A stretch of 64,000 nt of DNA from an uncultured Bacteroidales bacterium (GTDB lineage: Bacteria > Bacteroidota > Bacteroidia > Bacteroidales > Bacteroidaceae): positions 22,991 through 86,990 of the forward strand of contig CACZXN010000002.1 of NCBI GenBank assembly GCA_902785075.1, in the 5' to 3' direction. Positions 22,610 through 51,358 of this stretch are shown here, one piece after another; within the stretch, counting starts at the first letter, position 1; each line of letters starts with the position of its first letter. Under the pieces are notes generated by a model. It was not told where the DNA came from, made no database searches, and saw only the letters and a program-made list of their open reading frames with translations. The translations under genes and the position numbers were made by a program.

Positions 22610-23314
22610 TTATTTACCCCTGACTTTACACATGAAATAAGTGAAATATAAACGTGGGAGCAAACGCAACTGGTCGCCAACCTTATCAACCTCCCTAATA
22701 ACACGAATATTATCCATGAGACCCTTGGAGCGATGAACATTGGAGACTCCTTTTACATCATAATCAGTAATCGTAACAGGAATATGGCGGAACGTCTTCC
22801 CTGCTTGGAACAATTGCTTGGACTGCTTGAAATCTGCAGACATCGGATGATTCAGGTCAAATGGATATTCGCGAAGACATTGAGTACGGGTAAACACAGC
22901 TTGATGGCAATAATACATTTTATGGCTGTTGTGTGGCTCTTTCGCTACAATTAAGTTTCCCTTTTTAAGTATATCTCCATAAACGACATCAGCAGTTAAT
23001 CCCTGTGTAATCACATCAGCAAGCACATGAGGGTTAGCAAACGTATCTGCAGCATTGAGAAAGATGCAATAGTCTCCATGAACCATCTCTACCGCTTTAT
23101 TCATTGCATCATAGATGCCTCGATCGGGAGCAGAAGTATAAAATAAAGGAATTGATGGCTTTAGAGTTGCAAGATACTCAGGAGTTCCGTCAGTAGAAGC
23201 ACCATCCACCACAATACACTCCACATCTGGGTAAGTTTGTTCCCAGACACTCTGAAGCGTCCTCTTTAAAGAAGGTAACGCATTGTATGTGACCGTAATG
23301 ACAGAAATGAGCAT
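22610..23314 (-). CDS. glycosyltransferase family 2
   Basis: N-terminal ISVITVTYNALPSLKRTLQSV...VVDGASTDGT, typical of GT2 (GT-A). 234 aa. Confidence 0.8.
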   Translation of the reverse strand: MLISVITVTYNALPSLKRTLQSVWEQTYPDVECIVVDGASTDGTPEYLATLKPSIPLFYTSAPDRGIYDAMNKAVEMVHGDYCIFLNAADTFANPHVLADVITQGLTADVVYGDILKKGNLIVAKEPHNSHKMYYCHQAVFTRTQCLREYPFDLNHPMSADFKQSKQLFQAGKTFRHIPVTITDYDVKGVSNVHRSKGLMDNIRVIREVDKVGDQLRLLPRLYFTYFMCKVRGK

Positions 23315-23332
23315 GTAGTAAGAAGAAGTTGC

Positions 23333-24160
23333 CTATTTGAAAACTCTGGTATCCTGATAGTCATGATACGAATGGTCAAAATCGACATAATCAAACCCAT
23401 GAATACGACGATGGTTTTCAGGCGGTAGCTTCATATAATCGCCAAACAAACATTTCAAATATGTGTCAGGATGCTCCACACCCAACAATTCATGTCCCTC
23501 GAACATGATCGGGGTTGGTGTTCCCATTACCTCGCGTGGCATAGTGCTACGATCACCACTATCATAGTCAGCAATCAGTGGAGCCGTTTCGTAATCGTAG
23601 GCTGTCTGTATGCGTTTTTGTAAACGCTGTAAAGTGATATTTTTAACTGTAGCTTGTAGCAATCGAGGCAACCATGAAGTATAACCATGACCACGTTTAT
23701 ATGGATCTCTGTTACGCAAATACACCCATGTCTTTACCATATGAACCAACCCGATACGTAGCTTACGACGCCATCGCTGAGCAGGAATACCGTCGATAGG
23801 ACAAACATCAATATATACACCACCTATTTGATTGAGCGACCATCGCTCAATGAGTGTTGTACTACCATCAATCACCTTCAGCAGAGCACAACTGCTGTTT
23901 TCGTCTAATTCAAAAGTCTGTAGTTCGAATGGTTTAGGCAACCATTCAGAACCATGCTCAATAAATCGCTGAAAATCTGGGCGAGGCATTGCTATATCAG
24001 CATCATCATCCCAAGGAATAAAGCCTCCATGACGCACAGCTCCTAACATAGTACCATCTGAGAGCCAATAGCGTATGCCATGCTCACGACAAACCTTATC
24101 CACAACTACCAGAATGTTCAAAATACGCTGGTGGATATCTTCTATTTTGTAATTGGCCAT
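23333..24160 (-). CDS. licD: LicD-family phosphotransferase (phosphocholine/phosphonate transferase to glycan)
   Basis: DGTMLGAVRHGGFIPWDDDADIAM, the LicD nucleotidyltransferase-fold motif. 275 aa. Confidence 0.8.
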   Translation of the reverse strand: MANYKIEDIHQRILNILVVVDKVCREHGIRYWLSDGTMLGAVRHGGFIPWDDDADIAMPRPDFQRFIEHGSEWLPKPFELQTFELDENSSCALLKVIDGSTTLIERWSLNQIGGVYIDVCPIDGIPAQRWRRKLRIGLVHMVKTWVYLRNRDPYKRGHGYTSWLPRLLQATVKNITLQRLQKRIQTAYDYETAPLIADYDSGDRSTMPREVMGTPTPIMFEGHELLGVEHPDTYLKCLFGDYMKLPPENHRRIHGFDYVDFDHSYHDYQDTRVFK

Positions 24161-24181
24161 TGTTTTCTCTTATTTTTACTG

Positions 24182-24229
24182 CAAAGATACAACAAAATTT
24201 TGTTCTTTCAATTATTTTTTATAACTTTG
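24182..24229. promoter_or_regulatory. divergent promoter pair (CAAAGATA for licD strand; TAACTTTG for DegT strand)
   Basis: Reverse-complement TAnnTTTG box at 24182-24189, 22 nt upstream of the licD start. Forward TAACTTTG at 24222-24229, 21 nt upstream of the ATG at 24250. Confidence 0.5.
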
Positions 24230-24249
24230 TGGCATAAAAAGGTATTTAT

Positions 24250-25359
24250 ATGATTAGATTATCTAAATCTGTGGTTGGAAAGGCAGAATCAGATGCAGTC
24301 GCGCATGTGATTGAAGACATTGGCTACTTAGGAATGGGAGCCATTGTGGGTGAGTTTGAGCATCAGCTAGAGCAGTATATCGGTGGAAACCGTCGTGCCA
24401 TCTGTGTCAACAGCGGAACAGCAGCATTACATTTATCTATTCAAGCAGTAACCAAACCTGGTGATGAAGTACTGGTACCGTCGTTCACATTTGTGGCAAC
24501 CTATCAAGCCATCAGGGCTGCCGGATGTACACCTGTCAGTTGTGACATTCGCCCAGACACCTTGACGCTCGACCTTAAAGATGCAGAGCGCCGTATCACC
24601 CCTCGCACCACAGCCATGATGCCAGTATACTATGCCAGCAATTGCTGTATGGCCAAAGACTACCAAGCTTTTGCGAAAGAACATGGTTTACGATTAGTAG
24701 AAGATGCTGCCCATAGTTTTGGTTGTACTTGCCAAGGACAGAAAATCGGCTCCTTTGGAGATGTGGTCTGTTTCTCATTCGATGGAATTAAGAACATCAC
24801 AACAGGTGAAGGAGGAGCTATTTTCACAGCAGACGAAGATATCATCCAAAAAGTCAGTGATGCCCGCTTGCTTGGCGTTCAAAAAGACTCTGAGAAACGT
24901 TATGCAGGAAAGCGCAGTTGGAATTTTGATGTTGTGGATCAAGGCTACCGCTATCACATGAGTAACATTTTTGCAGCTATCGGCCAAGTTCAGCTCTCTA
25001 GATTTGAAAAGGAGTTTGCTCCACGCCGTCGTTATATTGCTCAACGCTATTGTGAGTTGCTCAAAGATACTCCTTATGTCAAATTGACACCTATGGATTA
25101 CGAGCACGAAATAGTGCCCCATATCTTTGCTTTGCAAATTCTGGAAGGAAAACGTCCACAATTAGAGCAGTTGTTGAAAGACAATGACATCCAATATGGC
25201 ATACAATATGCCCCAAATCATCATCTCACCCTCTTCCATGAGGATGTAGAACTGCCTGTTACCGATGAGGTTTACTCGCGCATCATTTCCATACCTATGC
25301 ATCCAGAATTAAGCGAGGATGACATTCAACTGATTTGTAAACTAATTAACAGCCTATGA
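24250..25359 (+). CDS. DegT/DnrJ/EryC1/StrS-family PLP-dependent sugar aminotransferase
   Basis: 369 aa. Family blocks GTAALHLS, VPSFTFVAT, FSFDGIKNITTGEGG (Lys in the DGIK context). ATGA overlap with the next gene. Confidence 0.8.
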   Translation: MIRLSKSVVGKAESDAVAHVIEDIGYLGMGAIVGEFEHQLEQYIGGNRRAICVNSGTAALHLSIQAVTKPGDEVLVPSFTFVATYQAIRAAGCTPVSCDIRPDTLTLDLKDAERRITPRTTAMMPVYYASNCCMAKDYQAFAKEHGLRLVEDAAHSFGCTCQGQKIGSFGDVVCFSFDGIKNITTGEGGAIFTADEDIIQKVSDARLLGVQKDSEKRYAGKRSWNFDVVDQGYRYHMSNIFAAIGQVQLSRFEKEFAPRRRYIAQRYCELLKDTPYVKLTPMDYEHEIVPHIFALQILEGKRPQLEQLLKDNDIQYGIQYAPNHHLTLFHEDVELPVTDEVYSRIISIPMHPELSEDDIQLICKLINSL

Positions 25360-26129
25360 AAACAATCATCTTAGCTGGAGGTTTCGGCACTCGCCTATCA
25401 GAATACACAAAACAGATTCCCAAGCCTATGGTAGAGATTGGCGGAAAGCCAATCCTATGGCACATTATGAACCACTACGCCCACTATGGTTACAAGGATT
25501 TTATTGTAGCTTTAGGCTATAAGGGAGAAGTTATCAAGGACTATTTCCTGCAGTATTATGCTCGGAATAATGATTTCACAATCGACTTAAGCAGCGGATC
25601 CATTCATTATATTAATGAACATGCTCGTGACTGGCGAGTGACACTTGTTGACACAGGCGCAGCCTCAATGACAGGTGGACGCGTACTCAGATTAAAAGAT
25701 TACATAGGTCAGGAAGACTTTATGTTGACTTACGGTGATGCAGTCAGTGATGTAAATATAAGTGAACTCGTAAATCGTTATCATCAATCAAATTGTCTGG
25801 CTATGGTGACTGCCGTACACCCAACAGCCCGTTTTGGTGAACTACAAATCGATTCAGAAGACTATGTTCGTTCCTTCAAAGAGAAACCCCAGGTCAATCA
25901 AGGATGGATTAACGGCGGTTTCTTCGTACTCAGTCCTAAAGTGTTTAACTATATTGAAAATGATCTAACCACATTCGAGGCAGAACCTTTGGAGCGCTTG
26001 GCAGTAGAAGGGCAGTTGGTAACATACCGTCATGAAGGTTTCTGGCAATGTATGGATACTGTCCGCGACCGCGATTTGCTGAACAAACTGTGGGACGAGA
26101 ATCGGGCACCTTGGAAACTTTCTGTCTAA
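25356..26129 (+). CDS. rfbF: glucose-1-phosphate cytidylyltransferase-like NTP transferase
   Basis: MKTIILAGGFGTRLSEYT..PKPMVEIGGKPILWHIM. 257 aa, typical RfbF length and N-terminus. Confidence 0.75.
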   Translation: MKTIILAGGFGTRLSEYTKQIPKPMVEIGGKPILWHIMNHYAHYGYKDFIVALGYKGEVIKDYFLQYYARNNDFTIDLSSGSIHYINEHARDWRVTLVDTGAASMTGGRVLRLKDYIGQEDFMLTYGDAVSDVNISELVNRYHQSNCLAMVTAVHPTARFGELQIDSEDYVRSFKEKPQVNQGWINGGFFVLSPKVFNYIENDLTTFEAEPLERLAVEGQLVTYRHEGFWQCMDTVRDRDLLNKLWDENRAPWKLSV

Positions 26130-26166
26130 CTAAGAACGAAATTGATTATTCAAATTAAAACAAAAA

Positions 26167-27255
26167 ATGAATATACTACAAAATGACATCAAACACACGC
26201 TCAATGGTCTCACGACTGCAGAACGTGCTAAATTCAACGGCTCTACTGTACTTATCACAGGTTGTGCTGGTTTTTTAGGTTATTATATGATGCAGTTCTT
26301 TGCTGCCGAATGCGAAGAGTTGGGCATCAAAAAGATTATTGGACTCGATAACTTCATGTTAGGCCAACCAGGATGGATTAAGGAATTGGAGAAGAATCCC
26401 AAAGTAGCCCTACGTAAGTTCGACATCATCAAGGACAACATTGCAGATATAGAAGGAGCATCAGAAGCAGACTTCATCATTCACATGGCTTCAATTGCTT
26501 CACCAATGTTCTACCGCAAATATCCTATTGAGACCTTAGACGCAAACATCTGGGGACTTCGTTCACTACTTGATTACTATTCCACACGTAACATCAAAGG
26601 ATTCTTGTTCTTCTCTTCAAGCGAGTTGTATGGCGACCCCGACCCTGCACATGTACCAACATCTGAGGACTATAATGGAAATGTTTGCGCTACAGGTCCA
26701 AGAGCTTGCTATGACGAGTCTAAACGTTTTGGAGAGACGATGTGCATGCTCTTTGCTCAAAAATACAATATGCCAATCGGCGTAGCACGTCCTTTCAACA
26801 ATTATGGTCCAGGTATGCGTATCGGAGACAAACGAGTCCCTGCAGATTTCGCTTTAGCCATTATGGAGAACAGAGATATCGAGATACTCAGCAATGGAAC
26901 TCCGACACGTACGTTCTGCTATATCGCAGATAGTGTATGCGGTTATTTCAAGATTCTGTTGCATGGGCAATATGACTTCTTCAACATCGGTATCGAAAAA
27001 CCAGAGATTACCATCGCGCAACTGGCAGAGATATATGTTGAGGCAGGACGGGAATTATTCGGATACAAAGGTGAGGTACGCTATGCTGTATCAGAAGACA
27101 AAGAGTATCTCACAAATAATCCTCAACGTAGATGCCCTTGCATCGACAAGGCTCGTAAGTTGTTGGGCTATAACCCCACCATCTTAGTTGATGAGGGTGT
27201 ATCACGTTTCTTGATGTACCTCAAGGAGAGTAACGAAGAAGAATACAAATGGTAG
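26167..27255 (+). CDS. NAD-dependent epimerase/dehydratase (extended SDR; UDP-glucuronate decarboxylase/ArnA-C-like)
   Basis: Rossmann motif ITGCAGFLGYY. Catalytic YDESKR (YxxxK). 362 aa. Confidence 0.7.
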   Translation: MNILQNDIKHTLNGLTTAERAKFNGSTVLITGCAGFLGYYMMQFFAAECEELGIKKIIGLDNFMLGQPGWIKELEKNPKVALRKFDIIKDNIADIEGASEADFIIHMASIASPMFYRKYPIETLDANIWGLRSLLDYYSTRNIKGFLFFSSSELYGDPDPAHVPTSEDYNGNVCATGPRACYDESKRFGETMCMLFAQKYNMPIGVARPFNNYGPGMRIGDKRVPADFALAIMENRDIEILSNGTPTRTFCYIADSVCGYFKILLHGQYDFFNIGIEKPEITIAQLAEIYVEAGRELFGYKGEVRYAVSEDKEYLTNNPQRRCPCIDKARKLLGYNPTILVDEGVSRFLMYLKESNEEEYKW

Positions 27256-27285
27256 AGAAATAGGAAGAAGCAAATCATCAGCAAT

Positions 27286-28545
27286 ATGACAATCACAGTA
27301 TTTGGATTGGGGTTTGTAGGTCTGACCACATCGTTGGGCTTCGCAGAGTATGGACATACAGTCTATGGTGTAGAAATAAATAGCGAGCGATTAGAAACCA
27401 TTAAAGGTGGACGATTGCCTTTTCTTGAACCAGGTCTTGACGAGGTCTTACTTCGTCATCTTGGTAATCGATTCCATCCAATTGGTATAAATGAACTGGA
27501 AAAGGCTGTCAGTCAGAGTGATTGCATCTATTATTGTGTTGGAACACCGTATGGAAAGGACGGACAAGCGGATCTCACCTATCTCTTCAGCGCCCTTGAT
27601 CAAACACTTAACGTGCGGCCCAATAATAAATATCAAGTTTTGGTTGTTAAGTCTACCATTCCCCCATCGACTACTTCACAAAAAATCATTCCATATTTAG
27701 AAGAAAAGGGCCTCAATGTAGGACAAGACTTAGGGGTGGCCAACAACCCAGAATTCTTGCGTGAGGGTCATTGCTGGGATGACTTCATTAAAGCAGACCG
27801 TATAGTCCTTGGTGTTAGTGACGAACGCTCTGCAGAAATGCTTCGTAAGGTATATGCCACCATCCAAGAACCTATACATTGTGTATCATTGAATACTGGT
27901 GAGTTTATCAAGTATTTGTCAAATACACTCCTTGCTACTCTAATCAGCTACAGCAATGAGATGAGCCTTGTAGCAGATACGATTGGTGGCATTGATGTTG
28001 CTGCGGCTTTCCGTATCCTTCATGAAGACAAGAGGTGGGGTGGTGCTACGATGGCAAGTTATGTTTATCCAGGCTGTGGATATGGAGGTTACTGCCTGCC
28101 CAAGGATACCAATGCTCTATATGCTGTAGCTAATACCGCAGGGTTTGACGCGCAAATACTCAAAAATGTCATAAGTATAAATAACCAAATGCCTGCTCAG
28201 ATTGCCCAAAAAGTAGCTAAAATTGTTGGAACAGACAAACAGCGTATCATTGGCATTCTAGGTTTGTCATTTAAACCAGGCAGCGATGACGTACGTGATA
28301 CTCCGTCAGCAAAAATCATTAAACAACTGCGACTATTAGGCTATACCAACATTATTGGATATGACCCCGTAGCCAATGCAGAGTTCGATCGCTATTATTC
28401 AGATTTAGCTATTAGCTATGAGCAGAGTTATGGCGAATTGATTCGAAAAGCAGAAGTATTGGTTATCACCACTGCTTGGCAAGAGTTTGCTAACATCAAA
28501 CAGCTTACTCAAAAGCCTGTTGTAGATTGTCGCTACATGTTATAG
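27286..28545 (+). CDS. nucleotide-sugar 6-dehydrogenase family (UDP-glucose/GDP-mannose dehydrogenase-like)
   Basis: N-terminal ITVFGLGFVGLTTS. Catalytic-Cys context GYGGYCLPKD. 419 aa. Confidence 0.8.
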   Translation: MTITVFGLGFVGLTTSLGFAEYGHTVYGVEINSERLETIKGGRLPFLEPGLDEVLLRHLGNRFHPIGINELEKAVSQSDCIYYCVGTPYGKDGQADLTYLFSALDQTLNVRPNNKYQVLVVKSTIPPSTTSQKIIPYLEEKGLNVGQDLGVANNPEFLREGHCWDDFIKADRIVLGVSDERSAEMLRKVYATIQEPIHCVSLNTGEFIKYLSNTLLATLISYSNEMSLVADTIGGIDVAAAFRILHEDKRWGGATMASYVYPGCGYGGYCLPKDTNALYAVANTAGFDAQILKNVISINNQMPAQIAQKVAKIVGTDKQRIIGILGLSFKPGSDDVRDTPSAKIIKQLRLLGYTNIIGYDPVANAEFDRYYSDLAISYEQSYGELIRKAEVLVITTAWQEFANIKQLTQKPVVDCRYML

Positions 28546-31174: not shown

Positions 31175-31242
31175 TATTTGTTATTATCTGCTATTTGAGT
31201 TGCAAAGATACAAAAAATAATTCAATTGTAAACTTTTTCTTT

Positions 31243-31280
31243 GAAAAAACAGCAGGTAGCTATATGCCACCTGCCGTTTT
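31243..31280 (-). terminator. hairpin plus T-run downstream of lipoprotein paralogue A
   Basis: GCAGGT (31252-31257) pairs with ACCTGC (31269-31274). On the minus strand it is followed by TTTTTT (complement of 31244-31249). Confidence 0.45.
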
Positions 31281-31309: not shown

Positions 31310-32160
31310 TTACTTCGTATAAATTTCGTTGAAATTAGCTGGGCTCTTACCGTTGTTAACCTGGACTTTTGTCCATTCATTTGATGGAGAAACGATACAA
31401 TCCCATGCGTTCTTGTCTCCAACAAACTCCTTAAATGTACCATCATCATTTGCTACCCAATATTGGCTTGCAAGCAGATTGTCAGTTGGAGTTTCGCTGA
31501 TAACTCTACCTTCAGCATTGGTAGTAACATCCAACAAGTAAGGTTTGTTGTCCTTCATATAAACATGAAGGTCTAACTTCTGATAGTCATACAGCATTGC
31601 AAATGCATTTACATAATACTCTGGATGCTCTTCTGAAGTAAATGTTACTGTAGATTCATCAAACATCGGTTTGAGGTCTTCACGAGTGACAGGAATAGTT
31701 TCGGTTGGGTTTTCTTTATTAACGATTTCGCTATTGAAGTAGTTCCATACCTCGAAGGTAATACCATCCTGATATGTGTACTGCAGATAGTCGAGAGCGG
31801 CTTGAGAAATACCCTCAGTAGTTACACGGATACCACCATCTTCATACTGTACCTTTACCTTTATTTCTTCGTTGGCTGTCTTGGTTTCACCATCCTTTTT
31901 ATATTCACCTGTTACAGTATAAATATAGGTGAAGCTACCACCTTCGTATGTTGCGTCCTTTCCAGGATTAGAATACTGATAATTTGGATCCAATTGGTGG
32001 CTATATACAATTGCCATATCGTCAACATCGCAATAGTAATCCTTTGCTACAGGGATGTATACCTCAACATCAGTCAATGCGCGTACATGGATAGACAACT
32101 TAGTTGCGATATAGTCATCCACTTCCTTCTCATCATTAACTGAGAAATTAATCTCTACTT
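31310..32160. repeat. high-identity duplicated block (C-terminal domain of paralogue A), partner 33747-34600
   Basis: Roughly 90% nucleotide identity by eye at a constant offset of 2440 bp. There are perfect runs of about 50 nt, e.g. 31580-31630 = 34020-34070. Confidence 0.85.
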
Positions 32161-33460
32161 CGTCTGCAGGAACAATGTCTGTGATATGCTCTTCAATTTC
32201 TTCACCACCACCACCATTATCACCTTCTGCTGGGATCAGCTTAATTACCCAGTCATTGAATACCTTGTCGCCTGGTAAGTATTCGCCAGAGTTCTTCTTT
32301 GTTTGGTAATCATAACAGAGATACAGGTTCTTCTCACCATTGAATTCAATCACATAGAATCTGTAAGCATCATGCTTTGTATTTTCTGTATCACCCCATG
32401 AATCATGATAGGTAGGATCTTCTACAGGAACATTGATGAGAAGTGCACGTGGGCCACCCACTGCGTTATAGTCGTTACGATGTTTTGAGAAGGCTACAAA
32501 ATCCATCTGCTGACTACCTACTACGTCATGTGATGCACCATTGTGGTCTTTCAAAGTTGGGAATTGCGAGCATTTATATTCAAAGAAGCTACCACCCACA
32601 TTCTGGATGAAATAAGTAGTTAGGTTACAAGTCAAGCCACCCTCGTCTGGATGCGCTGCAAGGTATGCCATTACATAGTCGTACTCAGCCTGAGAAACAT
32701 TTTCACCACGATCAGTCTTTGCTGGAGCCTTGTCAACATATTTTGCATATTCAGCAGGCATGTGCTCCTTTGTAGTGTTTTCCCAGTCTTGTACCTTGTA
32801 GTAGTTGCTATTTACAACAACGTCTGTGCCAGAACCACCTTGACCCGCAGTTGCTGGAGTAACCTTGAACACCCAATCATTGTAAACATTATCATCATCT
32901 CCATCCAAACCAAGATAAATGCTGCCACTTATATCAAACAATTTGTACTTGTTGGAAACAGTTGCACCATTCTTATCAAATGTTACATTTGTTAGTGGAG
33001 TATTGATAAACACGACATCATTCCAATAATATTGGTTTGAACTACTAACTAAAAGTCCATTTATAGTGAAATTTGTTAATCCTACAGGATTGCCTCCCAC
33101 CCACTGAACATAAAAATCTGTTACATCAGTAGTTGTCTCTGTAGCAGATGTTATAGCTGATAAAGCAGCCTGCTTTTCTGAATCTGACAAGTCATTAGGA
33201 AAATTATAACCTTCTGGAGCATTCCATGAATAACAAACTGCTGCTGCACCTTCTCCTCTTGTTTCAGCTTTAGTAGTTAATGTACTAGCAAGTACATTTC
33301 CGTCAGAGTAGACAACGAAATCAGGTGTCTTTACGATTTGCATAGTAAAACCTTGTCGTCTGTAGAAATCTTCAAGAGTGTCGTCGCTTTTACATGCGAA
33401 GAACACATTAGCACAAAGAGTAGCAATAGCTAAACTCCACAATACATAGATTTTCTTCAT
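31310..33460 (-). CDS. surface lipoprotein paralogue A (unknown family), 716 aa
   Basis: The ATG at 33460 gives MKKIYVLWSLAIATLCANVFFAC, a lipobox. The N-module and the C-terminal roughly 280 aa are shared with 33747..35606. The ORF-track start at 33541 lies in the 5' leader. Confidence 0.8.
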   Translation of the reverse strand: MKKIYVLWSLAIATLCANVFFACKSDDTLEDFYRRQGFTMQIVKTPDFVVYSDGNVLASTLTTKAETRGEGAAAVCYSWNAPEGYNFPNDLSDSEKQAALSAITSATETTTDVTDFYVQWVGGNPVGLTNFTINGLLVSSSNQYYWNDVVFINTPLTNVTFDKNGATVSNKYKLFDISGSIYLGLDGDDDNVYNDWVFKVTPATAGQGGSGTDVVVNSNYYKVQDWENTTKEHMPAEYAKYVDKAPAKTDRGENVSQAEYDYVMAYLAAHPDEGGLTCNLTTYFIQNVGGSFFEYKCSQFPTLKDHNGASHDVVGSQQMDFVAFSKHRNDYNAVGGPRALLINVPVEDPTYHDSWGDTENTKHDAYRFYVIEFNGEKNLYLCYDYQTKKNSGEYLPGDKVFNDWVIKLIPAEGDNGGGGEEIEEHITDIVPADEVEINFSVNDEKEVDDYIATKLSIHVRALTDVEVYIPVAKDYYCDVDDMAIVYSHQLDPNYQYSNPGKDATYEGGSFTYIYTVTGEYKKDGETKTANEEIKVKVQYEDGGIRVTTEGISQAALDYLQYTYQDGITFEVWNYFNSEIVNKENPTETIPVTREDLKPMFDESTVTFTSEEHPEYYVNAFAMLYDYQKLDLHVYMKDNKPYLLDVTTNAEGRVISETPTDNLLASQYWVANDDGTFKEFVGDKNAWDCIVSPSNEWTKVQVNNGKSPANFNEIYTK

Positions 33461-33606
33461 AATAATTGATTTGTATAAGAAAAAATAATTTGATTGATAT
33501 TCGTCATTTTTCGTTTTAGTGATTCTGCACTTCAATCTCACAAGTTGTTCATCAGATTCAACCGATTACATCAGCACTTTCAATCTTCTGCCTTTCAATT
33601 GGTTTG

Positions 33607-33614
33607 CAAAGTTA
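33607..33614 (-). promoter_or_regulatory. -7 box for paralogue A (TAACTTTG on minus strand)
   Basis: CAAAGTTA on the plus strand, about 150 nt upstream of the start at 33460. The context is conserved with the paralogue B promoter. Confidence 0.5.
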
Positions 33615-33678
33615 CAACTTTTTTGGTTACCCAAACATAATTATTCTTTTTTTTTGCATTTCAGAGTCAAAATATATA

Positions 33679-33712
33679 CAAAAAATGGCAGATTGCTAAT
33701 ACCATCTGCCAT
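33679..33712 (-). terminator. intrinsic terminator of paralogue B
   Basis: ATGGCAGAT (33685-33693) pairs with ATCTGCCAT (33704-33712). On the minus strand it is followed by TTTTT. Confidence 0.65.
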
Positions 33713-33746
33713 CTTTATATATAAATAAGGTAAAACCTTACTTACG

Positions 33747-35606
33747 TTACTTCTTGTAGATTACATTGAAGTCTGCTGGAGTAGTACCAGTGTGAGTTGT
33801 TTCAACTGTGTAAGCAGCAGGAGGAGTAACTGTGCAATCCCAAGCATTCTTATCACCTACGAATTTCTTGAATGTACCATCATCATTAGCTTCCCAGTAC
33901 TTCGTATCGAGCAGATTACTTGTTTTAGTTTCAGAGATGATATTACGATTAGCATCACGAACAACATCCAACAGATAAGGTTTATTATCATCACCCATGT
34001 AAACATCGAGATCAACCTTCTGATAGTCATACAGCATTGCAAATGCATTTACATAATACTCTGGATGCTCTGTTGAGGTAAATTTGACTGTAGATCCATC
34101 AAACATCGGTTTGAGGTCGTCACGAGTTACAGGAATTGTTTCGGTTGGGCTATCTTCCTTAACGATTGCGCTATTGAAGTAGTTCCATACCTCGAAGGTA
34201 ATACCATCTTGGTACTTGTAATTCAGATAGTCAAGAGCTGCTTGAGAAATACCCTCGGTAGTTACACGGATGCCACCTTCTTTATACTCTACCTTTACCT
34301 TTATTTCTTTGTTGACTGTCTTGGTTTCACCATCCTTTTTATATTCACCTTTTACAGTATAAATATAGGTGAAGCTACCACCTTTGTATGTTTCGGTCTT
34401 TCCAGGATTAGAATACTGGTAGTTTGGATCCAATCTGTGGCTATATACAATTGCCATATCGTCAACATCGCAATAGTAATCCTTTGCTACTGGGATGAAT
34501 ACCTCAACATCAGTCAGAGCACGAATGTGGATTGACAGTTTAGTTGCGATGTAATCGTCCTTCTCCTTCTTGTCGTTTACTGAGAGGTTGATCTCAACTT
34601 CGTCAGTAACAACCGAAGTAGTATTTTCTCCACCTTCATTTTCTCCTTCGTTTCCTCCTTCTTCATTTTCATTGTCGTCATCAGGAACAGTAATATCTGT
34701 ACCATCAGCATGAGTGATCTTGATTACCCAGTCATCATAAACACCATCACCAGGATATACGAATGGGTTACCAAAATCATCAGTCTTTGACATACGATAG
34801 TCGAAGCAGAGATAACAACTCATCTTGCCTTCATACTCAATATAGTAGTACGTAAATGCATCATGATTCCAATTTGCTAAATCGCCGTACATTGCCTTAT
34901 AACTAGGTTTAGTCAAAGGAATTTTGTCATAGAAGCATAACAGACGATGTCCCTGGTGTGAAGTATAAGGATGAGATTCGCCAGCAATATGAATATTATC
35001 AAAATACAGGTAATTCATCACATTTCCACCAATATAGGTCTCTGTGCGATATCCCGTATGATTCCAATTCGGAATTTGGAAATCATACTTAGTGTCACTT
35101 GAACCTACATTTTGTACGAAGTAATCCTTCTCAACGGTACATTTATCCTTTGCTTCCTCAGGATGTTCTTTAATATACTTCATCACATAAGCATATTCAG
35201 CTCCAGAAACCCCCTCTACACCACTTTTACCATCATTAGATTTCAAAGGTGCATTAGCAGCATATGGAGCATAAACGTCTGGTATTTCTTTATAACCTGT
35301 AGTATGCCAAATTCCATTAATCGATCCTCTATAATCATAAGCCTCAACTAAAAAGTAATCTACACCTTCCACAGGTTCAACAATATCACCTTCACCACGA
35401 GTTTCAGCACGAGTAGTAGTAGATAATGTGCTAGCAAGTACATTTCCGTCAGAGTACACAACGAAATCAGGTGTCTTTACGAGTTGCATCGTAAAACCCT
35501 GCCGTCTGTAGAAATCTTCGAGTGTGTCGTCGCTCTTACATGCGAAGAACACATTTGCAAAAAAAGTAGCAATAGCTAAACTCCATAAAACATAGATTTT
35601 CTTCAT
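33747..35606 (-). CDS. surface lipoprotein paralogue B (unknown family), 619 aa
   Basis: MKKIYVLWSLAIATFFANVFFAC lipobox. Shares the N-module and C-terminal domain with A. Acidic linker DDDNENEEGGNEGENEGGEN precedes the conserved domain. Confidence 0.85.
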   Translation of the reverse strand: MKKIYVLWSLAIATFFANVFFACKSDDTLEDFYRRQGFTMQLVKTPDFVVYSDGNVLASTLSTTTRAETRGEGDIVEPVEGVDYFLVEAYDYRGSINGIWHTTGYKEIPDVYAPYAANAPLKSNDGKSGVEGVSGAEYAYVMKYIKEHPEEAKDKCTVEKDYFVQNVGSSDTKYDFQIPNWNHTGYRTETYIGGNVMNYLYFDNIHIAGESHPYTSHQGHRLLCFYDKIPLTKPSYKAMYGDLANWNHDAFTYYYIEYEGKMSCYLCFDYRMSKTDDFGNPFVYPGDGVYDDWVIKITHADGTDITVPDDDNENEEGGNEGENEGGENTTSVVTDEVEINLSVNDKKEKDDYIATKLSIHIRALTDVEVFIPVAKDYYCDVDDMAIVYSHRLDPNYQYSNPGKTETYKGGSFTYIYTVKGEYKKDGETKTVNKEIKVKVEYKEGGIRVTTEGISQAALDYLNYKYQDGITFEVWNYFNSAIVKEDSPTETIPVTRDDLKPMFDGSTVKFTSTEHPEYYVNAFAMLYDYQKVDLDVYMGDDNKPYLLDVVRDANRNIISETKTSNLLDTKYWEANDDGTFKKFVGDKNAWDCTVTPPAAYTVETTHTGTTPADFNVIYKK

Positions 35607-35776
35607 AAATTCAAAATGATATAAAAGTTAATAATTAGTGTTTTTTTTGATTCTTCAAATTTTGTTTTTAATGGTTCAGCACTTCATTCCTAACAAGTAG
35701 TTCATCAAGTTCATCAAACTCACAGATTCAATCGATGACACCAGCACTTTCAATCTTCTGTCTTTCTATTAGGTTG

Positions 35777-35784
35777 CAAAGGTA
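35777..35784 (-). promoter_or_regulatory. -7 box for paralogue B (TACCTTTG on minus strand)
   Basis: CAAAGGTA on the plus strand, about 170 nt upstream of the start at 35606. Confidence 0.5.
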
Positions 35785-35901
35785 ACACCTTATTATATTA
35801 TAACCAAATGTTTTTGAACAAATTTATAGAAAAAATGTAAAATTGGCATATATCACCACGAATTTTGTCACCTTTTGAAACAAAAGGTCAAATTGTGTCA
35901 C

Positions 35902-37044
35902 TTATTCTCTATCGATATAGTAGATGTTGTAGTTATCGGGCAATTGATAGTATTTCGTCTCAACATCATAAGGAACGTCAGCATTGTTCTCGTGTACTAA
36001 TGGATATTGTTCGCCACTAAATTTGACGGTACAATCCCATTCGTTCTTATGTCTGAGCAGGAGATAATCTTTCGAAGGTGACCCATCGCTACGTGCTGGT
36101 CGTACCCAATACTTAGAATCGAGCAATTCGGTACATTCTTTATCTTTATAAGGTATTTGCATTCCTGTTTCTGAATCCACCTTGCTATACACGGTTTCCT
36201 GGCAATTGTTGACTCTTTTGAATTCATTCACATAGATATAGGGCCGCTCAGAGAAATCGATGGTAGCTCCACGATTGAAATTATCGCGCAAAGCATCGCG
36301 TGTTATCGTTGGCATGAAATAATTCCATATATCAATCTGAATACCCTCATTGAAGGCACGCTTCAGATAAGCAATCACATTATCGGTCACACCCGTGATG
36401 GTAACCTCAACACCTTCTGTTCCATTTTCAATACGCCCATAACCTACTTTTGCAACAACCGTGTCACTGCTAACAAGACAAGTCATCGATGCTTCACCAT
36501 AGATAGTTTTCAGTTTTGAGATGTGATTTGATGGTTGAATCGATGAGACGTAAGACTTAGCCATCATGTCCAAAGCATGTCGATTGTTATATGTGAAATA
36601 CTGAGCACTTAGCGGCAGAAATACAGCTACATCAGTAGGTGTACGGAAATAGAGAGACAGCAGAACAGCTCTGAAATCCGTTTCGTCCCAAGTTCGCAGG
36701 GCTTCGAACATATCGTTATCAGCAGCCACATAGAGCCTGGCAGAAACTTGATCCGTCACTTCCATTCGCTCACCATTAGAAAGAGTGATATGCTCTTTTT
36801 CAGCACGAGTTTCGAGAGTGTTTGTTGTGCTCGAAAGTACAAAGTCTGAACATTTGAATACAAAATCAGGAATGGCTACAACCCTCATTTTCTGATTGAT
36901 ATAGGCATCAGAATCATCTGTGTCATCACAAGCCAACAAACTGCCCGTCAACGCAACAACTGCAATAACGGCTATCGTATTTTGAAGAAGTGTCTTTGCA
37001 TATCGCAACATCACTTTTGAGGATTTTAACAAATTCGCTTTCAT
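35902..37044 (-). CDS. surface lipoprotein paralogue C (divergent, core-only), 380 aa
   Basis: Lipobox ...ALTGSLLAC. Shares the blocks IPDFV...ETR, IWNYF and NEWDCTV with A and B. Alternative start at 37011. Confidence 0.75.
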   Translation of the reverse strand: MKANLLKSSKVMLRYAKTLLQNTIAVIAVVALTGSLLACDDTDDSDAYINQKMRVVAIPDFVFKCSDFVLSSTTNTLETRAEKEHITLSNGERMEVTDQVSARLYVAADNDMFEALRTWDETDFRAVLLSLYFRTPTDVAVFLPLSAQYFTYNNRHALDMMAKSYVSSIQPSNHISKLKTIYGEASMTCLVSSDTVVAKVGYGRIENGTEGVEVTITGVTDNVIAYLKRAFNEGIQIDIWNYFMPTITRDALRDNFNRGATIDFSERPYIYVNEFKRVNNCQETVYSKVDSETGMQIPYKDKECTELLDSKYWVRPARSDGSPSKDYLLLRHKNEWDCTVKFSGEQYPLVHENNADVPYDVETKYYQLPDNYNIYYIDRE

Positions 37045-37089: not shown

Positions 37090-37211
37090 CAAAGATACAA
37101 TAATTTTTCCAAATAAATGAATATTTACGGCAGAAAACTACTGAAACGCAGCGAAATAGGTGTGTTTTTTGAGAGAATGCATTGAAAGTTAGGAATTATT
37201 TGTTATCTTTG
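37090..37211. promoter_or_regulatory. divergent promoter region (CAAAGATA for paralogue C; TATCTTTG for the Cys-rich gene)
   Basis: Reverse-complement TAnnTTTG box at 37090-37097. Forward box at 37204-37211, 25 nt upstream of the ATG at 37236. Confidence 0.5.
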
Positions 37212-37235
37212 CAGAAGAAATCAAACAATCTATCT

Positions 37236-37670
37236 ATGCCAAAGAAGTTTTACCGTTCTACCCCGATTGATTACGCCGTGTGCCAATATGCAGATTGCCC
37301 TTTGGCTGCCAAATGTCTGCATCAGTTGACCTATCAGCCTTTGTTGGCAGAAGTAACGATTTTGAAATTATTGAATCCCAATAAATGTTCGAAAGACGAA
37401 ACATGTGAGTTCTTTCGCGACTCAAAACCCGTGATGTATGCACGCGGATTCAAGCATTTTCAGCAACAGCTGTATCCTGAACAATATAAGCGTTTTTCTA
37501 TCCGATTGATGGGCGAATTCGGGCGTACAGGCTTCTACGAACGGCGTAGAGGCGAAACTGCCCTTTCGCCAAAAGAACAGCAAATCGTACTCTCTGTGCT
37601 TCAGGAAGTTGGAGCGACTGGCGAATTCAAGTTCAGCTCGTACGAGGAGAATTACAATTGGTTTGATTAG
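37236..37670 (+). CDS. small Cys-rich cytoplasmic protein, unknown function
   Basis: 144 aa from MPKKFYRSTPIDYAVCQYADCPLAAKCLH, with further Cys in NKCSKDETCEFF. No signal peptide. The ORF-track TTG start at 37182 overlaps the promoter box. Confidence 0.65.
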   Translation: MPKKFYRSTPIDYAVCQYADCPLAAKCLHQLTYQPLLAEVTILKLLNPNKCSKDETCEFFRDSKPVMYARGFKHFQQQLYPEQYKRFSIRLMGEFGRTGFYERRRGETALSPKEQQIVLSVLQEVGATGEFKFSSYEENYNWFD

Positions 37671-43656: not shown

Positions 43657-46600
43657 CTATTCCAATAATTTCATTAAAGTATTATCATCAGGATGTTCCG
43701 AATAGTAAGCGATAAACTCCTTAGGCGTCATACCAAAGTAATCACGGAACGTATTACTAAAATGAGAGTGAGACGAGAAACCAACTCGATAGGCTACTTC
43801 AGACACATTCACATTATTGTTTATCAAAAGGTATGCTGCTTGTTTCAAACGATAAGAACGAATGAAGTTATTTGGCGATACACCATAGCGGTCTTTCATT
43901 TTCCTATTCAGATGAACTCGGCTGATTCCTACTATGTTTGCCAACTCGTTCACTCCAAATGAGGAATCATCAAGGTTCTTCTTCAAACTCTCATTGATAC
44001 GTGCAAACAACTTATCATCAGCACTATCGATTGTTTTTTCTGTGTAGTCATAATCAACTTCTGTACGACGCATCTTACCCATCATTTTCTCACGTACCTT
44101 GATACCTTGAATAATTGCACTCTTCAGTTTCAACACATTGAATGGCTTACTGATGAAATGATCGACTTGCAGATTCAAACTATTTATCTCAGCCATATCA
44201 CTATTCTCGCTAGTCAGCATGATGATAGGGATACTATCCGTCTCAGGATTGGACTTAATTCGTTTGCTTAACTCAATACCATTTCCGTCAGGCATCCGAA
44301 TATCTGTCACAACAGCATCAGGGCGAGTCTTCAGAATCTCCTGCCAAGCTTCGTTACCACTATTAGCAGTAAACACGTTAAATGCATCGCTGATTTGCGT
44401 TTTTATGTAAAGGCACAAGTTCTTATCATCATCGACAACCAAGACCGTCTTCTTTGTTTTGTCAACATTGTCAGATTCTTCATCTGTTTCTTGCTCCATT
44501 TCTATATTTGCAAACAAATCATCCTTTGTTTGGAATTCAGAGTCTTCTTCGCCTCGGGGTGACAGTTCCTCTTCTGTTAGATGAATCTTATGTAATGGGA
44601 ATCGCAAGACAAACTCAACACCGTCTGGTTCCATATTATGAACATTTATAGTACCGTGATGTAAGTTTACGAGTTCGTTTACAAGATTCAATCCGATACC
44701 TGAGCCTATCGTCTCATTAGTCACATTATTTGCTTGGAAGAACCGTTCAAAGACATGAGGAATATCCTCCTCTGAGATATACGAACCACTATTGTATATT
44801 CTAATCTCGAACCAATCTATTGCATCTTCCATAAGACTCTTAGTCCTTACGAGTATACGTCCGTTTTCGGGTGTATATTTAAAAGCATTTGACAGAATAT
44901 TCGAAAGGATCTTCTCAAAATGTACCTTATCAACCCATAATGTCTCACTCGGATTGAGGTGGTCGATACGATAATCGATATTCTTGGCTTTCGCATATGA
45001 TGAGAAAGAATCAAACACATCCTTCGAATAGTCGTTGAAATTCACTTCCGAGAAATGAAGATGGAATTGTCCATTATCAATTTTACGTATATCAGTTATC
45101 TGTTTTACGGTCGTAATCAAACGGTCACAATTCAATTTCATAACATTATACATTCCCAACAGACCTTGATCAGTGGTCGAAGCTATCAATTGGGAAAGTG
45201 GGGAGACAATCATCGTCAACGGAGAACGGAGTTCGTGAGCAATGCTGGTAAACATCCTTAATTTAGCTTCTTTCAGGTTTTCTTCCTGTCTGACTGCCAA
45301 CAACAACTGTTGCTGACGTTTCCGCTCCGCATAGATTCTAAAGCCAAAATAGCCAAGAATAAAGAGTACAATGAAATAGGTTAACCATGCAGCGACAGTA
45401 TTGTACCATGGTTGATGGATATTGATTAGCAATGTCTTTTCTATAGCAGATTGTTCGTTGTTCTCCAAATAAGCTTTAAGATGAAGCTTATATGAACCTG
45501 GCGGCAGGTTTGGATAATTAGCCTCCAGGTCAGCACTTGCAAGATGCCATTCTTGGTCATACCCTTCAAGATAATATTGGAAGCGCACTTGATTTGGAGT
45601 TGCAAACTCAGGAACACCAAACGATACTGCAACAGAGTTTTGATCGTGCGACAAAGATAGTTCCGACAGAGCAATTACATTGGCATTCATCGCATTCTGA
45701 TGCTTAAATGGTATATAGCGGATAGGCGCTCCATTAATCCTCACAGACGTAAAGCTAATATCATGAATCAATTTCTTCGGCACTCTCATCAATGTCGCAT
45801 TAAACTTGATGATTCCATTATCACCACCAAATACAATATCATGCGAAGGGGTCATAACGTGAGCATTACGATGGAACTCTCCAATATAGTATCCGTCAAA
45901 CGATGAATAGCTATAGGACTTCATCGATTGCTTGTCAATACGCATGACCGATTTTGATGTTGTCAGCCAAATATCTTTGTCAGCAACTTCAATTGATTTA
46001 ACATTCTCTTCAGGGAGAATCTCAAACGACTCGCCATTCTGTATATTATAAGAGATAAGCCCCTGATTCGTTCCTACCAATAGGGTTTTGTTCATGATGG
46101 CAATACACTGAGGCATCAGGATACTCGATTTAGGGAATTTCACTTCCTCACCTTTCTTGGTTTCGATGTTATAAGAGAAAATACCTTGTGCAGTTCCTAT
46201 CCAAAGTGTACCAAAGTCATCACAACATAGCGAATAAATCCACCCATTGAACGACATCGTAGAAAATAGGTTGGTAACCGTTTTGTTAATCAAATCAACA
46301 ACAAAGACTCCCTGTCCATTCGTACCGACAAACAACAAGTCTTTTTGTGGATAGTATTTTAACATCATTACAAAACTGGTTGATAGGAACTTTAGCCAAT
46401 CTGGCGTCACAAACTGGTTTCCTTGTAGGTATTGTAAACCTCCACCATACGAACCTACCCAAACCGTATTTCGCTTATCGATAGCAATCGTTTGAACTAA
46501 AGAAGATGCTAATCCATTAGAATAGGGTGTAGTGGTTTGGTTTCTTCCTTTAATTTCAAGTTTGAACACTCCACAGCCGTCTGTTCCTACCCAAAATGCA

Positions 46601-51000: not shown

Positions 51001-51358
51001 TTATATTATCGAAGAGGGTGATACTATTGCAACTTACTACTATCCAAACTCTATGGAAGGTGCAAATGCCCGCTTCAACAAGACTCCTGAGGCATATCAG
51101 AACGAAGTTGTCATTATGGTTGAAGAAGGTAATAATCTCACATTCGGTATCCGCAAGTCAACAGAAATCGACAACGACTGGTGTATGTTCGACAATTGGA
51201 AACTCTTCTATCTCGGCAAGGACACACCTGAGGCTATCAATGAAATTGCAGGCGAAAAGAATGCTGTCAAGGCTATCTTCAACCTTGCTGGCCAACAGAT
51301 GAACGGTCTCCAGAAGGGTCTCAACATTGTTGATGGAAAGAAAGTGTTTGTGAAGTAA
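48020..51358 (+). CDS. large secreted multi-domain protein with T9SS C-terminal sorting domain, unknown function
   Basis: Signal MKKILLCAAFTIISFAVFAQ. Three internally repeated modules. C-terminal ...AIFNLAGQQMNGLQKGLNIVDGKKVFVK resembles a type A Por/T9SS CTD. Confidence 0.8.
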   Translation: MKKILLCAAFTIISFAVFAQDVPDASQWKVGDDVSEAVGFGNLSFENDPMDYWKVNCTKGNPNQTGGLFEIYDGSGDVFQYLYLPAGMYELNCQGYYRFGTSWDADPNSYNDGTWKNLSLLYATAGTYDITSEEFTESGTTFSNPLMPRLFEGVMEQLYVGPKEGEDGYPGWDMSDGTYLDGRWGPCSIPGSLVWFASDKYLPFESDEDETVYNKVTFFVTEASWVKVGVQKNETKDADSFMATNFHLIYKGTADDAAKIALAYKSLEIAQKKAETLADEIMVDYQALGAMLLDAIMELDYDDTTVEGIEAATIAFNELFTNYTQYYQEAKQLTTAIAAMEELAAATDYEGKEAFLKAIDDATTVATATDFDAASSPEAYKEAYNALTEARGAYVLTRPAIDGVYNYSDLINQPFFCNNEFNPTWDEDLQQYIFSDEIESSWCTVTETGYNDLVNEHADWIPISSNVTIASSGNDEGRWVINSTTWHGGVPASVTLQHGYPAVGGWTAEPTGNPELLHQTIVNLPNGYYSMSALMCNVQAISDLQYVYIEGTGGVQEKANLTMGAQGWWGGWSRNSIWEKLETGMVEVTDGKVTIGSSSDSFYGVTGFQLYYYGEKPDFTAMIRKKLEAVSEEMENLTFPGDFTYVEELMKTIPATITGFEAYEAANKTIAEISEYTATAFNYLNNWNLGDRIANAQVNYEPDAPEYKILDKMFDYFMTIGTNATDTYKTAQEASALYDQLEAYFTYRTKVAEYASYYPAINDIIADQNTGLMAGITSEKLDNYTKSLEDAEAIGAAADIAKILEPLDLDKATPENPVDITLIVKNPTYDEGSTGWEGAITVDNRLHNAERFNTKFDVSQTIKSLPAGCYLVKVQAYYRDGGSAGDANSGVYYNWNVAANKNMEYWDNKNVELYARTNEAERVEYVQSLASVQYTEPGTYRIFNTTDDSNIEQVVDEHGNPVYDDEGKEVWTDPDTLWYTYDDAEVSWTLDQRVYIIEEGDTIATYYYPNSMEGANARFNKTPEAYQNEVVIMVEEGNNLTFGIRKSTEIDNDWCMFDNWKLFYLGKDTPEAINEIAGEKNAVKAIFNLAGQQMNGLQKGLNIVDGKKVFVK

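Follow-up and report, generated by a model that had tools for sequence, protein, structure and literature searches.

Three tandem lipoprotein genes of an undescribed, putatively exopolysaccharide-associated Bacteroidales family, two of them diversified by recombination

The window analyzed here is a 64,000-nucleotide (nt) stretch of contig CACZXN010000002.1 (assembly GCA_902785075.1), from a rumen-type Bacteroidales bacterium. It contains three adjacent minus-strand open reading frames (ORFs), arranged head to tail, that encode the lipoprotein paralogues A, B and C, and comparison with related loci indicates that the two long ones, A and B, have been diversified by exchange of segments. The ORF coordinates and sequences agree with the initial annotation in giving three same-strand genes of 716, 619 and 380 amino acids (aa), each with a lipobox (NVFFAC before KSDD in A and B, GSLLAC before DDTDD in C). 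Hidden Markov models (HMMs) of the domains were built from an alignment of 80 family members. The genes and their parts are the following.

31310-33460, minus strand: gene A, 716 aa when read from MKKIYVLW (as a mechanical ORF it reaches a GTG at 33541); signal and lipobox at aa 1-23, N-module at 24-72, a partial extra middle domain (Mid) at about 75-215, the full Mid at 228-414, a Gly/Glu linker and then the C-domain at 433-716
31313-32164, minus strand: C-domain of A (aa 433-716), matched by the C-domain HMM
31556-32110, minus strand: tract of A about 90% identical in nt to B at offset +2440, from DNA comparison
32816-33238, minus strand: extra module of A (aa ~75-215), ending in NDWVFKV; Mid HMM match at A 129-204 and motif alignment
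33747-35606, minus strand: gene B, a 619-aa lipoprotein; N-module at aa 24-72, Mid at 100-305, acidic linker at 306-334, C-domain at 335-619
33912-34487, minus strand: recombinant A-type tract in B (aa 374-565), with B-type sequence on both sides, from maximum chi-square (max-chi2) and synonymous divergence (dS)
34692-35309, minus strand: Mid of B (aa 100-305), ending in the GDGVYDDWVIKI motif; predicted local distance difference test (pLDDT) mostly 85-97
35902-37044, minus strand: gene C, a 380-aa short paralogue without Mid; lipobox, N-hairpin at aa ~60-72, TRA linker, C-domain at 96-380

A and B are 92% identical over their first 73 aa and 58% over the remainder. Their middles share about 37% identity, in keeping with the remote similarity first reported for this part, which is a homologous domain with many allelic classes; in the C-domain an identity of about 80-90% is limited to roughly B 335-520, and the last ~100 aa are about 65% identical. 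The extra module of A, also pointed out in the initial annotation, is real and duplicates part of the middle domain within the protein, since the Mid HMM matches A both at 129-204 and at 228-414, and the same double-Mid architecture is present in loci L002, L087, L089, L090 and L093. C is 30% identical to B over the C-domain (E 1e-21) and matches its N-module weakly (35% over 62 aa, E 0.001); the N-module HMM gave no match to C, and the motif PDF...S...L.ST...TRA is common to C and the family in the family alignment. The proposal of an N-module and a C-domain shared by all three proteins therefore stands for A and B and, in C, for the C-domain, the N-module of C being a weak match.

At the DNA level, the two long genes have two repeats in common, one of 300 nt with 89% identity (offset 2440) and one of 192 nt with 92% (offset 2146), and the 3'-terminal ~250 nt of the genes are far less alike (27-35 matches per 100 nt at offset 2440, 71% at 2437). 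The constant 2440-nt offset at ~90% identity described before thus applies to 31556-32110 and fails at the 3' ends and at the repeat with the other offset. The perfect run 31580-31630 = 34020-34070 is exact (51/51) and lies within a longer one of 55 nt (31577-31631), and a second run of 54 nt covers 31997-32050. As proof of conversion, such runs were rejected: at 89-90% identity, runs of ~50 nt are not improbable (estimated P of ~0.3 over the tract). Since the argument is not significant alone, it was replaced by triplet and dS tests.

Syntenic comparison loci were recovered by a metagenome scan. L081 and L079 have the gene order DUF6078, C, B and second long gene, and L080 and L083 have related arrays. 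Between L081 and the window, the flanks are 97-98% identical in nt and proteins A and C are 96% and 98% identical, but B is only 69% identical, as a patchwork that goes from 27% to 100% per 40-residue block. Window B is closest to the B type in its N-module (99% to L079_B, 94% to window A) and in its Mid (91% to L079_B, 37% to window A), to the A type at residues 401-520 (83% to window A, 56-58% to B orthologues), and to the B type once more at 521-619 (87%, against 65% to window A). It is therefore a protein with a B-type N-terminus and middle, A-type residues 374-565 and a last stretch of ~55 residues that is B-type again. In the three-sequence max-chi2 test, informative sites were split 117:25 (window A : L079_B) inside the tract and 26:387 outside it, with a chi2 of 320, and 0 of 200 permutations reached the observed value; three triplet tests were made, each with 0/200 permutations at the observed chi2. 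Chimeric alleles were also found elsewhere in the metagenome assemblies, and identical, non-chimeric alleles across strains were not the pattern. The second gene of L079 is A-type only at residues 333-476 (55:1). Residues 162-302 of L081_B are of window B rather than L079_B type at 23 of 28 informative sites, with 100% nt identity to window B over residues ~217-275 and a C-domain of the L079_B type. L001 and L086 share N-termini and C-domains at 94-100% nt identity (mostly 98-100%), with Mid regions at 48-83%.

The values of dS point in the same direction. Between the window and L081 or L079, flanking genes have a dS of 0.04-0.11, and their ratio of nonsynonymous to synonymous divergence (dN/dS) is <= 0.04 except in the short DUF6078 gene (0.10 versus L081). 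Inside B, residues 374-565 reach a dS of 1.0-1.2 to B orthologues, about 10 times the background, residues 566-619 only 0.03, and Mid 0.14-0.28 between near-identical strains; B 374-520 has a dS of 0.17 to window A. This segmental synonymous divergence indicates exchange and not fast mutation. When 47 close relatives were typed by segment, Mid fell into 15 types, C-domain segment 2 into 12 and segment 3 into 14, with a single type for the first segment, and several segment-type quartets were present in all four combinations; window B was the only one of nine Mid-type-2 proteins with an A-type C-domain segment. That A and B are simply old duplicates under purifying selection, with strain differences due to fast point mutation and no recombination, is hardly credible when dS is so sharply segmental, the affinity switches at defined breakpoints (0/200 permutations) and segment types occur in all four combinations, even if the family-wide conservation of the N-module (A versus B dS 0.42) and the unremarkable perfect runs would both fit it. 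The breakpoints and the segment-wise discordant relationships support A and B as recombination-diversified paralogues. The closest sampled relative of the recombinant tract in B is the adjacent gene A (86% aa identity), which makes intragenomic A-to-B conversion its simplest source.

A different origin of the mosaics would be chimeric assembly, by collapse or strain switching in the ~550-nt repeat between A and B. The comparison loci are mostly metagenome contigs or metagenome-assembled genomes (MAGs), and repeats of ~90% identity can mislead short-read assemblers. We regard this as very improbable: each of the three proteins is on record, in exactly this form, from six contigs (NCBI and ENA), which for B argues against a one-off assembly chimera; independent mosaics appear in unrelated contigs (L079_A, L081_B and L001/L086); and the A-type tract, 8-10% different in nt from A, is not a collapsed copy.

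The third gene behaves differently. C is 97-98% identical between strains, with a dN/dS of 0.12-0.13, and is not mosaic; clusters at 90% identity contain 50 sequences for C, four for A and two for B. C is a stable, divergent paralogue, only A and B being mosaic, and with 30% identity to B it has drifted too far for homologous exchange with them. Nor did the idea that both conserved ends of the proteins are products of conversion survive. The N-module dS of 0.42 between A and B suggests constraint rather than recent conversion, and this module is conserved family-wide under purifying selection; the exchanged tract lies inside the C-domain, and at their very C-termini (~55-100 aa) A and B are unlike.

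General homologous recombination is most simply the mechanism of exchange. A and B would undergo RecA-type segmental recombination, both between paralogues and between strains, which would swap Mid and C-domain segments and produce mosaic alleles, with exchange running across conserved junctions, namely the N-module, the opening ~40 residues of the C-domain and the last ~55 residues of the protein. An invertible promoter or shufflon was rejected: there was no site-specific recombinase among the 12 neighboring genes scanned, and the inverted repeats at the array are short, AT-rich and imperfect, with no phase-variation repeats or invertible elements. Mosaic surface-protein paralogues as such are of a well-known kind, and segmental gene conversion diversifies Vlp/Vsp in Mycoplasma, Vmp/VlsE in Borrelia, pilE/pilS in Neisseria and TprK in Treponema. 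The array resembles Vlp, VlsE, pilE and TprK in having paralogous, predicted surface proteins whose internal segments are swapped between conserved anchoring ends. It differs from them in the lack of silent cassettes, each gene having its own promoter and a full ORF, in that A, B and C are unrelated to them in sequence and predicted fold, and in that exchange is seen between strains.

The transcription signals around the genes are as the initial annotation had described them, with one Bacteroidetes-type -7 motif (TAnnTTTG) per gene, hairpins followed by a T-run after A and B, and a hairpin alone after C.

33607-33614, minus strand: promoter of A, TAACTTTG, with the -7 motif TAnnTTTG
35777-35784, minus strand: promoter of B, TACCTTTG, TAnnTTTG
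37090-37097, minus strand: promoter of C, TATCTTTG, TAnnTTTG
~31244-31276, minus strand: terminator after A, hairpin and T-run
~33680-33716, minus strand: terminator after B, hairpin and T-run
~35861-35897, minus strand: hairpin without T-run after C

The leaders of A (33461-33625) and B (35607-35795) are long (~145-170 nt) and ~83% identical to each other except for a 17-nt indel. An Rfam search with them gave no match at E <= 0.1, and they may be simply part of the duplicated unit or may be regulatory.

A search with B gave 291 homologues, none of them with a Pfam domain and, wherever a source gives a name, called hypothetical protein or putative lipoprotein. The canonical family protein has 450-550 aa and consists, in this order, of a signal with the lipobox Cys, an acidic stretch, the N-module, a T-R/K-A linker, Mid, a low-complexity linker and the C-domain. 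A lipobox-like Cys was found in 226 of 260 family proteins; the acidic stretch has the consensus C-S-(S/N)-(D/E)-D, with at least two acidic residues at +2 to +7 in 153 of these 226. The lipoprotein export signal (LES) of Bacteroidetes has been defined experimentally as K-(D/E)2, or SDDDD in B. fragilis (PMC5080379), and a motif of this type, with two or more acidic residues behind a polar or basic one at +2 to +6, follows the lipidated Cys in A and B (C-K-S-D-D) and in C (C-D-D-T-D-D). Lipidation and LES-dependent surface display are predicted on these grounds.

The N-module carries the motif (K)xPDFxxYSGxxxLxST. In the linker behind it, the motif T-[R/K]-[A/G/S] is found at aa 64-70 of A, 66-72 of B and 79-81 of C; its basic residue is present in 74 of 80 and in 29 of 32 aligned sequences and is followed by a small residue (A in 29 of the 32). 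It is kept in >90% of members despite lying in a segment that AlphaFold predicts as disordered, and resembles a short linear motif or a site cut by a protease. Mid usually has ~200 aa and is beta-rich; it starts with the helix VSxxEYxxVxxYIKxHP, contains the motif GDGVYNDWV and ends in GDGVYNDWVIKL. In relatives it is sometimes duplicated, replaced by other modules or absent. The inserts that replace it in long relatives are in a few cases InlB B-repeats (Flg_new_2) and in a few DUF4114-like, and most match nothing, while short relatives such as C have no middle region at all. Between Mid and C-domain the linker is of low complexity, acidic or Pro-rich.

With a profile of the C-domain (~200-285 aa), 376 matches at E <= 1e-3 were obtained among 1.84 billion representative proteins, and in the 150 best matches listed, from proteins of roughly 170 to 900 aa, the match was always at the C-terminal end. 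Long forms have an invariant polar cluster in this domain (E338, N340, S358, H360, R362, D366, D382, E472, N475 and Y476) located on adjacent predicted strands, of which E338, N340 and H360 are lost in C-type proteins. The 75 genome loci with family members are nearly all from Bacteroidales by record label, and include Prevotellaceae (among them Segatella bryantii, S. baroniae and S. cerevisiae), Paludibacteraceae, Muribaculaceae and rumen MAGs labelled Bacteroidaceae; three records are labelled otherwise, two as Oscillospiraceae and one as an unclassified bacterium. A short, Mid-less paralogue stands beside long ones in the window and in L039 and L074.

That A, B and C could not be assigned to any known domain was confirmed by all the searches made. 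There was no match to A, B or C in Pfam and NCBIfam, nothing consistent in Pfam for 80 and then 52 family members, and no match to PDB sequences by phmmer or profile hmmsearch. The AlphaFold2 model of B has a mean pLDDT of 80.9, with 307 residues at >=90, and low confidence at the signal peptide, the TRAETRGEG linker, the acidic linker and one loop. That of C has a predicted template modeling score of 0.75 and 196 residues at >=90, with a pLDDT of ~80 at the N-hairpin (60-72) and <50 at the linker that follows (76-95, TRAEKE...). With these two confident models, Foldseek gave no match in the PDB at E <= 1e-3, so that no characterized family was reached by sequence, profile or structure. The same limit gave no match for the B model in BFVD, and a likeness to viral receptor-binding proteins was discarded as nothing significant came from that database. 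The weak Foldseek matches that recurred, to CBM3-like sandwiches (probability <= 0.6) and, for the C-domain, to Mog1/PsbP/DcrB-like proteins (<= 0.33), were not counted as evidence. A role as cargo of type IX secretion (T9SS) was also rejected, as NCBIfam found no C-terminal sorting domain (TIGR04183 or TIGR04131) and the signals are those of lipoproteins and not of the signal peptidase I type. A literature search by accession and topic found nothing on the lipoprotein family or on the operon described below in Prevotella.

One lead came from the end of Mid, where GDGVYNDWVIKL resembles DNDYNDAVVVI of the Ca2+-dependent lectin LecB (PA-IIL), whose acidic motif for binding Ca2+ and sugar is D-x-D-Y-N-D-x-V. 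When GDGVYNDWV was compared with TDNDYNDAV of LecB, hhalign aligned 12 columns only, with a probability of 0.9%, and LecB was not among the 50 best Foldseek matches listed. DUF4114, a domain implicated in sugar binding (PMC9109919, PMC11934332), was likewise compared: none of 80 close members matched it (PF13448) at E <= 0.1, and among distant relatives with alternative middles L032 scored 28.8 bits (cutoff 27) and L065 and L071 remained below the cutoff. Homology of Mid to LecB or DUF4114 is retained as a lead only, as hhalign aligned just the 12-residue motif.

A functional context emerged from the relatives. ORFs lying up to 6 kb from the family gene were grouped into clusters across the 75 genome loci, and a conserved operon was found next to it in 34 of 74, of which 28 have a gap of <500 bp and the same direction. 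Loci with this link come from Prevotellaceae, Paludibacteraceae, Muribaculaceae and Coprobacter (L009, L014, L016, L018, L020-L023, L025-L031, L033, L036-L038, L042, L047, L048, L051, L055-L058, L060, L061, L066, L071, L072, L074 and L075). The order is either family gene, c2, GT2, TPR and DUF4838, or (c2), GT2, TPR, (DUF4838), DUF1573 and family gene, with the following products.

c2: membrane protein with a weak HEAT-like region
GT2: ~471 aa, processive type, Pfam Glyco_tranf_2_3 / Glyco_trans_2_3
TPR: protein of 780-990 aa
DUF4838: domain match with E 1e-37
DUF1573: small lipoprotein, E 1.7e-5 and 25.2 bits versus a Pfam cutoff of 26.1 bits in the representative scanned

The best NCBIfam match of the GT2 protein is the PgaC/IcaA poly-beta-1,6-GlcNAc synthase TIGR03937, at E 4e-36 but under the equivalog cutoff. 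In GH163 and GH185, catalysis resides in the DUF4838 domain, distantly GH20-like with a hexosaminidase fold, and 6-sulfo-beta-GlcNAcase is the activity of the characterized GH185 member (PMC10570127). The TPR protein ends in an aromatic residue, and its C-terminal third may be an outer-membrane barrel. The operon looks like an undescribed synthase-dependent exopolysaccharide system of Bacteroidales. HAN051, SUG853, SUG860 and S. cerevisiae each have one operon-linked copy of the family gene together with stand-alone paralogues; in S. cerevisiae DSM 100619 the linked copy is that of L025.

Among known systems, the family was compared with the accessory outer-membrane components of synthase-dependent exopolysaccharide systems such as PgaABCD of E. 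coli, in which PgaC is the synthase, PgaA a TPR-porin and PgaB a lipoprotein. Operon-linked family members resemble these in being co-directional with genes for a PgaC/IcaA-like GT2, a large protein with TPRs and a DUF4838 protein of GH20-like type; the family has no sequence or fold likeness to PgaB or PgaA, and the window genes are detached from such an operon. With the surface glycan-binding proteins of the SusE/F type, the family shares LES-bearing lipoproteins, tandem beta-rich modules, a variable number of domains and high strain-level diversity, and it differs from them in that its genes are outside polysaccharide utilization loci (PULs), with no SusC/D neighbor in the loci examined and no Pfam or fold likeness.

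The link to the operon, conserved in nearly half of the sampled species, indicates that the family protein is most likely a surface protein for a synthase-made exopolysaccharide. With a probability of roughly 0.6, we read A, B and C as stand-alone paralogues of this exopolysaccharide-associated family of surface lipoproteins, with A and B diversified by recombination. The family protein would bind, tether or process the exopolysaccharide at the cell surface; the variable Mid region would be its outward, ligand-facing part, the C-domain the constant part that bears the invariant polar cluster, and C-type proteins, devoid of E338, N340 and H360, could be structural or regulatory partners. In this lineage, extra copies would have given rise to the tandem array of three genes, each with its own promoter. 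An association of A, B and C themselves with exopolysaccharide is suggested by analogy with the linked relatives. Phage, toxins, host antibody or predators might exert a diversifying pressure that keeps the mosaics, which is speculative.

Several points weigh against this reading. The array is not beside the exopolysaccharide operon, no gene of which is found within the 64 kb of the window; this makes A, B and C members of the stand-alone class, and transfer of function to them depends on 30-40% identity and shared architecture. Among the relatives, 40 of the 74 loci are unlinked to the operon. The surface exposure of the three proteins is a prediction, no domain that demonstrably binds carbohydrate or acts as an enzyme emerged, the likeness of Mid to DUF4114/LecB amounts to the 12-residue motif, and the Pfam threshold of DUF4114 is reached in just one distant relative. 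As for the recombination, the nt divergence of 8-10% between the A-type tract of B and window A (dS 0.17) implies that the conversion is old or that the tract was imported from an unsampled strain, and the comparison sequences, mostly metagenome contigs, may include strain chimeras. The suggestion of ongoing gene conversion or cassette exchange in the initial annotation therefore stands for A and B, by breakpoints and dS, but not for C, and ongoing conversion inside this genome goes beyond the evidence, as exchange is seen at the population level.

The polar cluster allows another view of the family, in which the C-domain is an enzyme (hydrolase, lyase or deacetylase) acting on the polysaccharide of the operon and C is a catalytically degenerate form. 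The cluster is invariant on adjacent predicted strands in long forms, three of its residues (E338, N340, H360) are lost in C-type proteins, and a synthase and a GH20-like protein are encoded in the operon to which the family is linked. We consider this rather improbable, because the C-domain has no sequence or fold likeness to a known enzyme, the operon already encodes a glycosidase-like DUF4838 protein, and a conserved patch of polar residues on a sheet would suit a ligand-binding site just as well.

The conserved linker motif, in turn, recalls the maturation of type V pilins. FimA and Mfa1 are lipoprotein precursors cut at Arg46/Arg49 by Arg-gingipain, which opens a groove (PMC8512630). By analogy, an Arg/Lys-specific protease would cut the surface precursor between T-R/K and A and remove the lipidated N-hairpin docked on the C-domain, leading to release or leaving a groove for strand exchange or oligomerization (e.g., of A or B with C). 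FimA has ~383 aa, near the 380 aa of C. Type V pilins consist of two transthyretin-like beta-sandwich domains, and their operons (fim/mfa type) also encode anchor and tip subunits. The likeness extends to the lipoprotein precursor itself, with lipobox signals in A, B and C, to an N-terminal strand element (the predicted beta-hairpin, pLDDT ~80 in C, before a linker with pLDDT <50), to the basic residue of a putative processing site, kept in 74/80 and 29/32 sequences with a small residue next to it, to the nearly Bacteroidales-confined range and to the short Mid-less paralogue that accompanies long ones in the window, L039 and L074. However, neither A, B and C nor 80 relatives have a FimA/Mfa Pfam match, no pilin was among the 50 best Foldseek matches listed for either model from the PDB, where many type V pilins are deposited, none of these matches reached E <= 1e-3, and the genes lie outside fim/mfa-like operons, their conserved partners being exopolysaccharide genes. 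Such a maturation is thus unlikely, and membership in the type V pilins, suspected from the lipobox, the ~45-aa N-module and the conserved Arg, was rejected, as no pilin was among the PDB matches listed by Foldseek for the two AlphaFold2 models; the comparison is kept as a mechanistic analogy only. A composite picture, in which the family is a fold-novel outer-surface part of a Bacteroidales-specific, PgaC-like exopolysaccharide secretion system, undergoes pilin-like maturation at T-R/K-A and has its ligand-facing modules reshuffled by recombination among tandem stand-alone paralogues, is tentative and somewhat doubtful. If this picture is true, strain-specific matrix, adhesion or phage-receptor phenotypes would be expected in rumen and gut Prevotellaceae.

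Returning to the stand-alone, exopolysaccharide-associated paralogues, the family, its predicted folds, the T-R/K-A motif and the operon link are undescribed as far as databases and the searchable literature go. Prevotellaceae and related Bacteroidales dominate the rumen and many gut communities, and their surface biology beyond PULs and capsules is poorly known. The family defined by the locus comprises a few hundred sequence clusters, is unnamed by domain databases and has no significant Foldseek match in the PDB; the conserved PgaC-like operon gives it a testable functional context. The strain-level mosaicism makes A and B likely targets of diversifying pressure, by phage, bacteriocin-like toxins, antibody or protozoa. 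The A/B segment types could act as strain markers, and family members linked to the operon are suited to genetic work in cultured Segatella, provided that a strain has the operon.

Some variation was observed around the family genes of relatives. The GT2 and TPR genes are fused in some loci into a ~1241-aa protein. Some Prevotella MAGs have two family paralogues before the operon with a conserved ~178-aa ORF (cluster c29) between them (L055 5284-9152, L071 7212-11029, L072 5120-9134), and the first paralogue of L071 has a weak DUF4114-like middle region. In L076 (Segatella baroniae DSM 16972, AUFQ01000006.1, 10711-17716) three large genes without a Pfam match, of 998 aa, 572 aa and at least 2726 aa, are located downstream of the family member.

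In the window, the array is flanked on one side by an SNF-family transporter, a class-V aminotransferase and polysaccharide-biosynthesis genes, and on the other by the DUF6078 gene, an M16 peptidase, CysRS and a hybrid two-component regulator.

37182-37670, plus strand: DUF6078 gene, divergent from the array and syntenic in the closest relatives, L079 and L081

DUF6078 was discarded as a conserved partner, since it is syntenic in the closest relatives only and a single-sequence search did not detect it beside family members elsewhere. A ~481-aa CotH-family gene (PF08757, E 6e-27) is present in four of four syntenic loci (L081 12220-13789, L079 7978-9467, L080 11991-13445, L083 9888-11409) and missing from the window at 31175-31245, a site between the terminator of A and the promoter of the SNF transporter. 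The difference is a clean ~1.5-kb deletion in the window or an insertion in the other loci. The C-terminal tail of the CotH-family protein is a candidate for a T9SS C-terminal-domain-like sequence.

Beyond the transporter and aminotransferase, positions 22610-28545 of the window encode GT2, LicD, a DegT-type aminotransferase, an NAD-dependent epimerase/dehydratase and a UDP-glucose/GDP-mannose dehydrogenase, and a long run of plus-strand genes occupies 51-22326. The hybrid regulator (Reg_prop/Y_Y_Y, HATPase, receiver and AraC HTH) is found at 43657-47715 on the minus strand, and adjoins a 1112-aa plus-strand ORF (48020-51358) that is a candidate SusC-like transporter, possibly of a PUL unrelated to the lipoprotein array. 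The G+C content shows a modest dip over the array, with 0.37-0.38 over A and B (32001-36000) versus 0.42-0.47 in the adjoining 2-kb bins.

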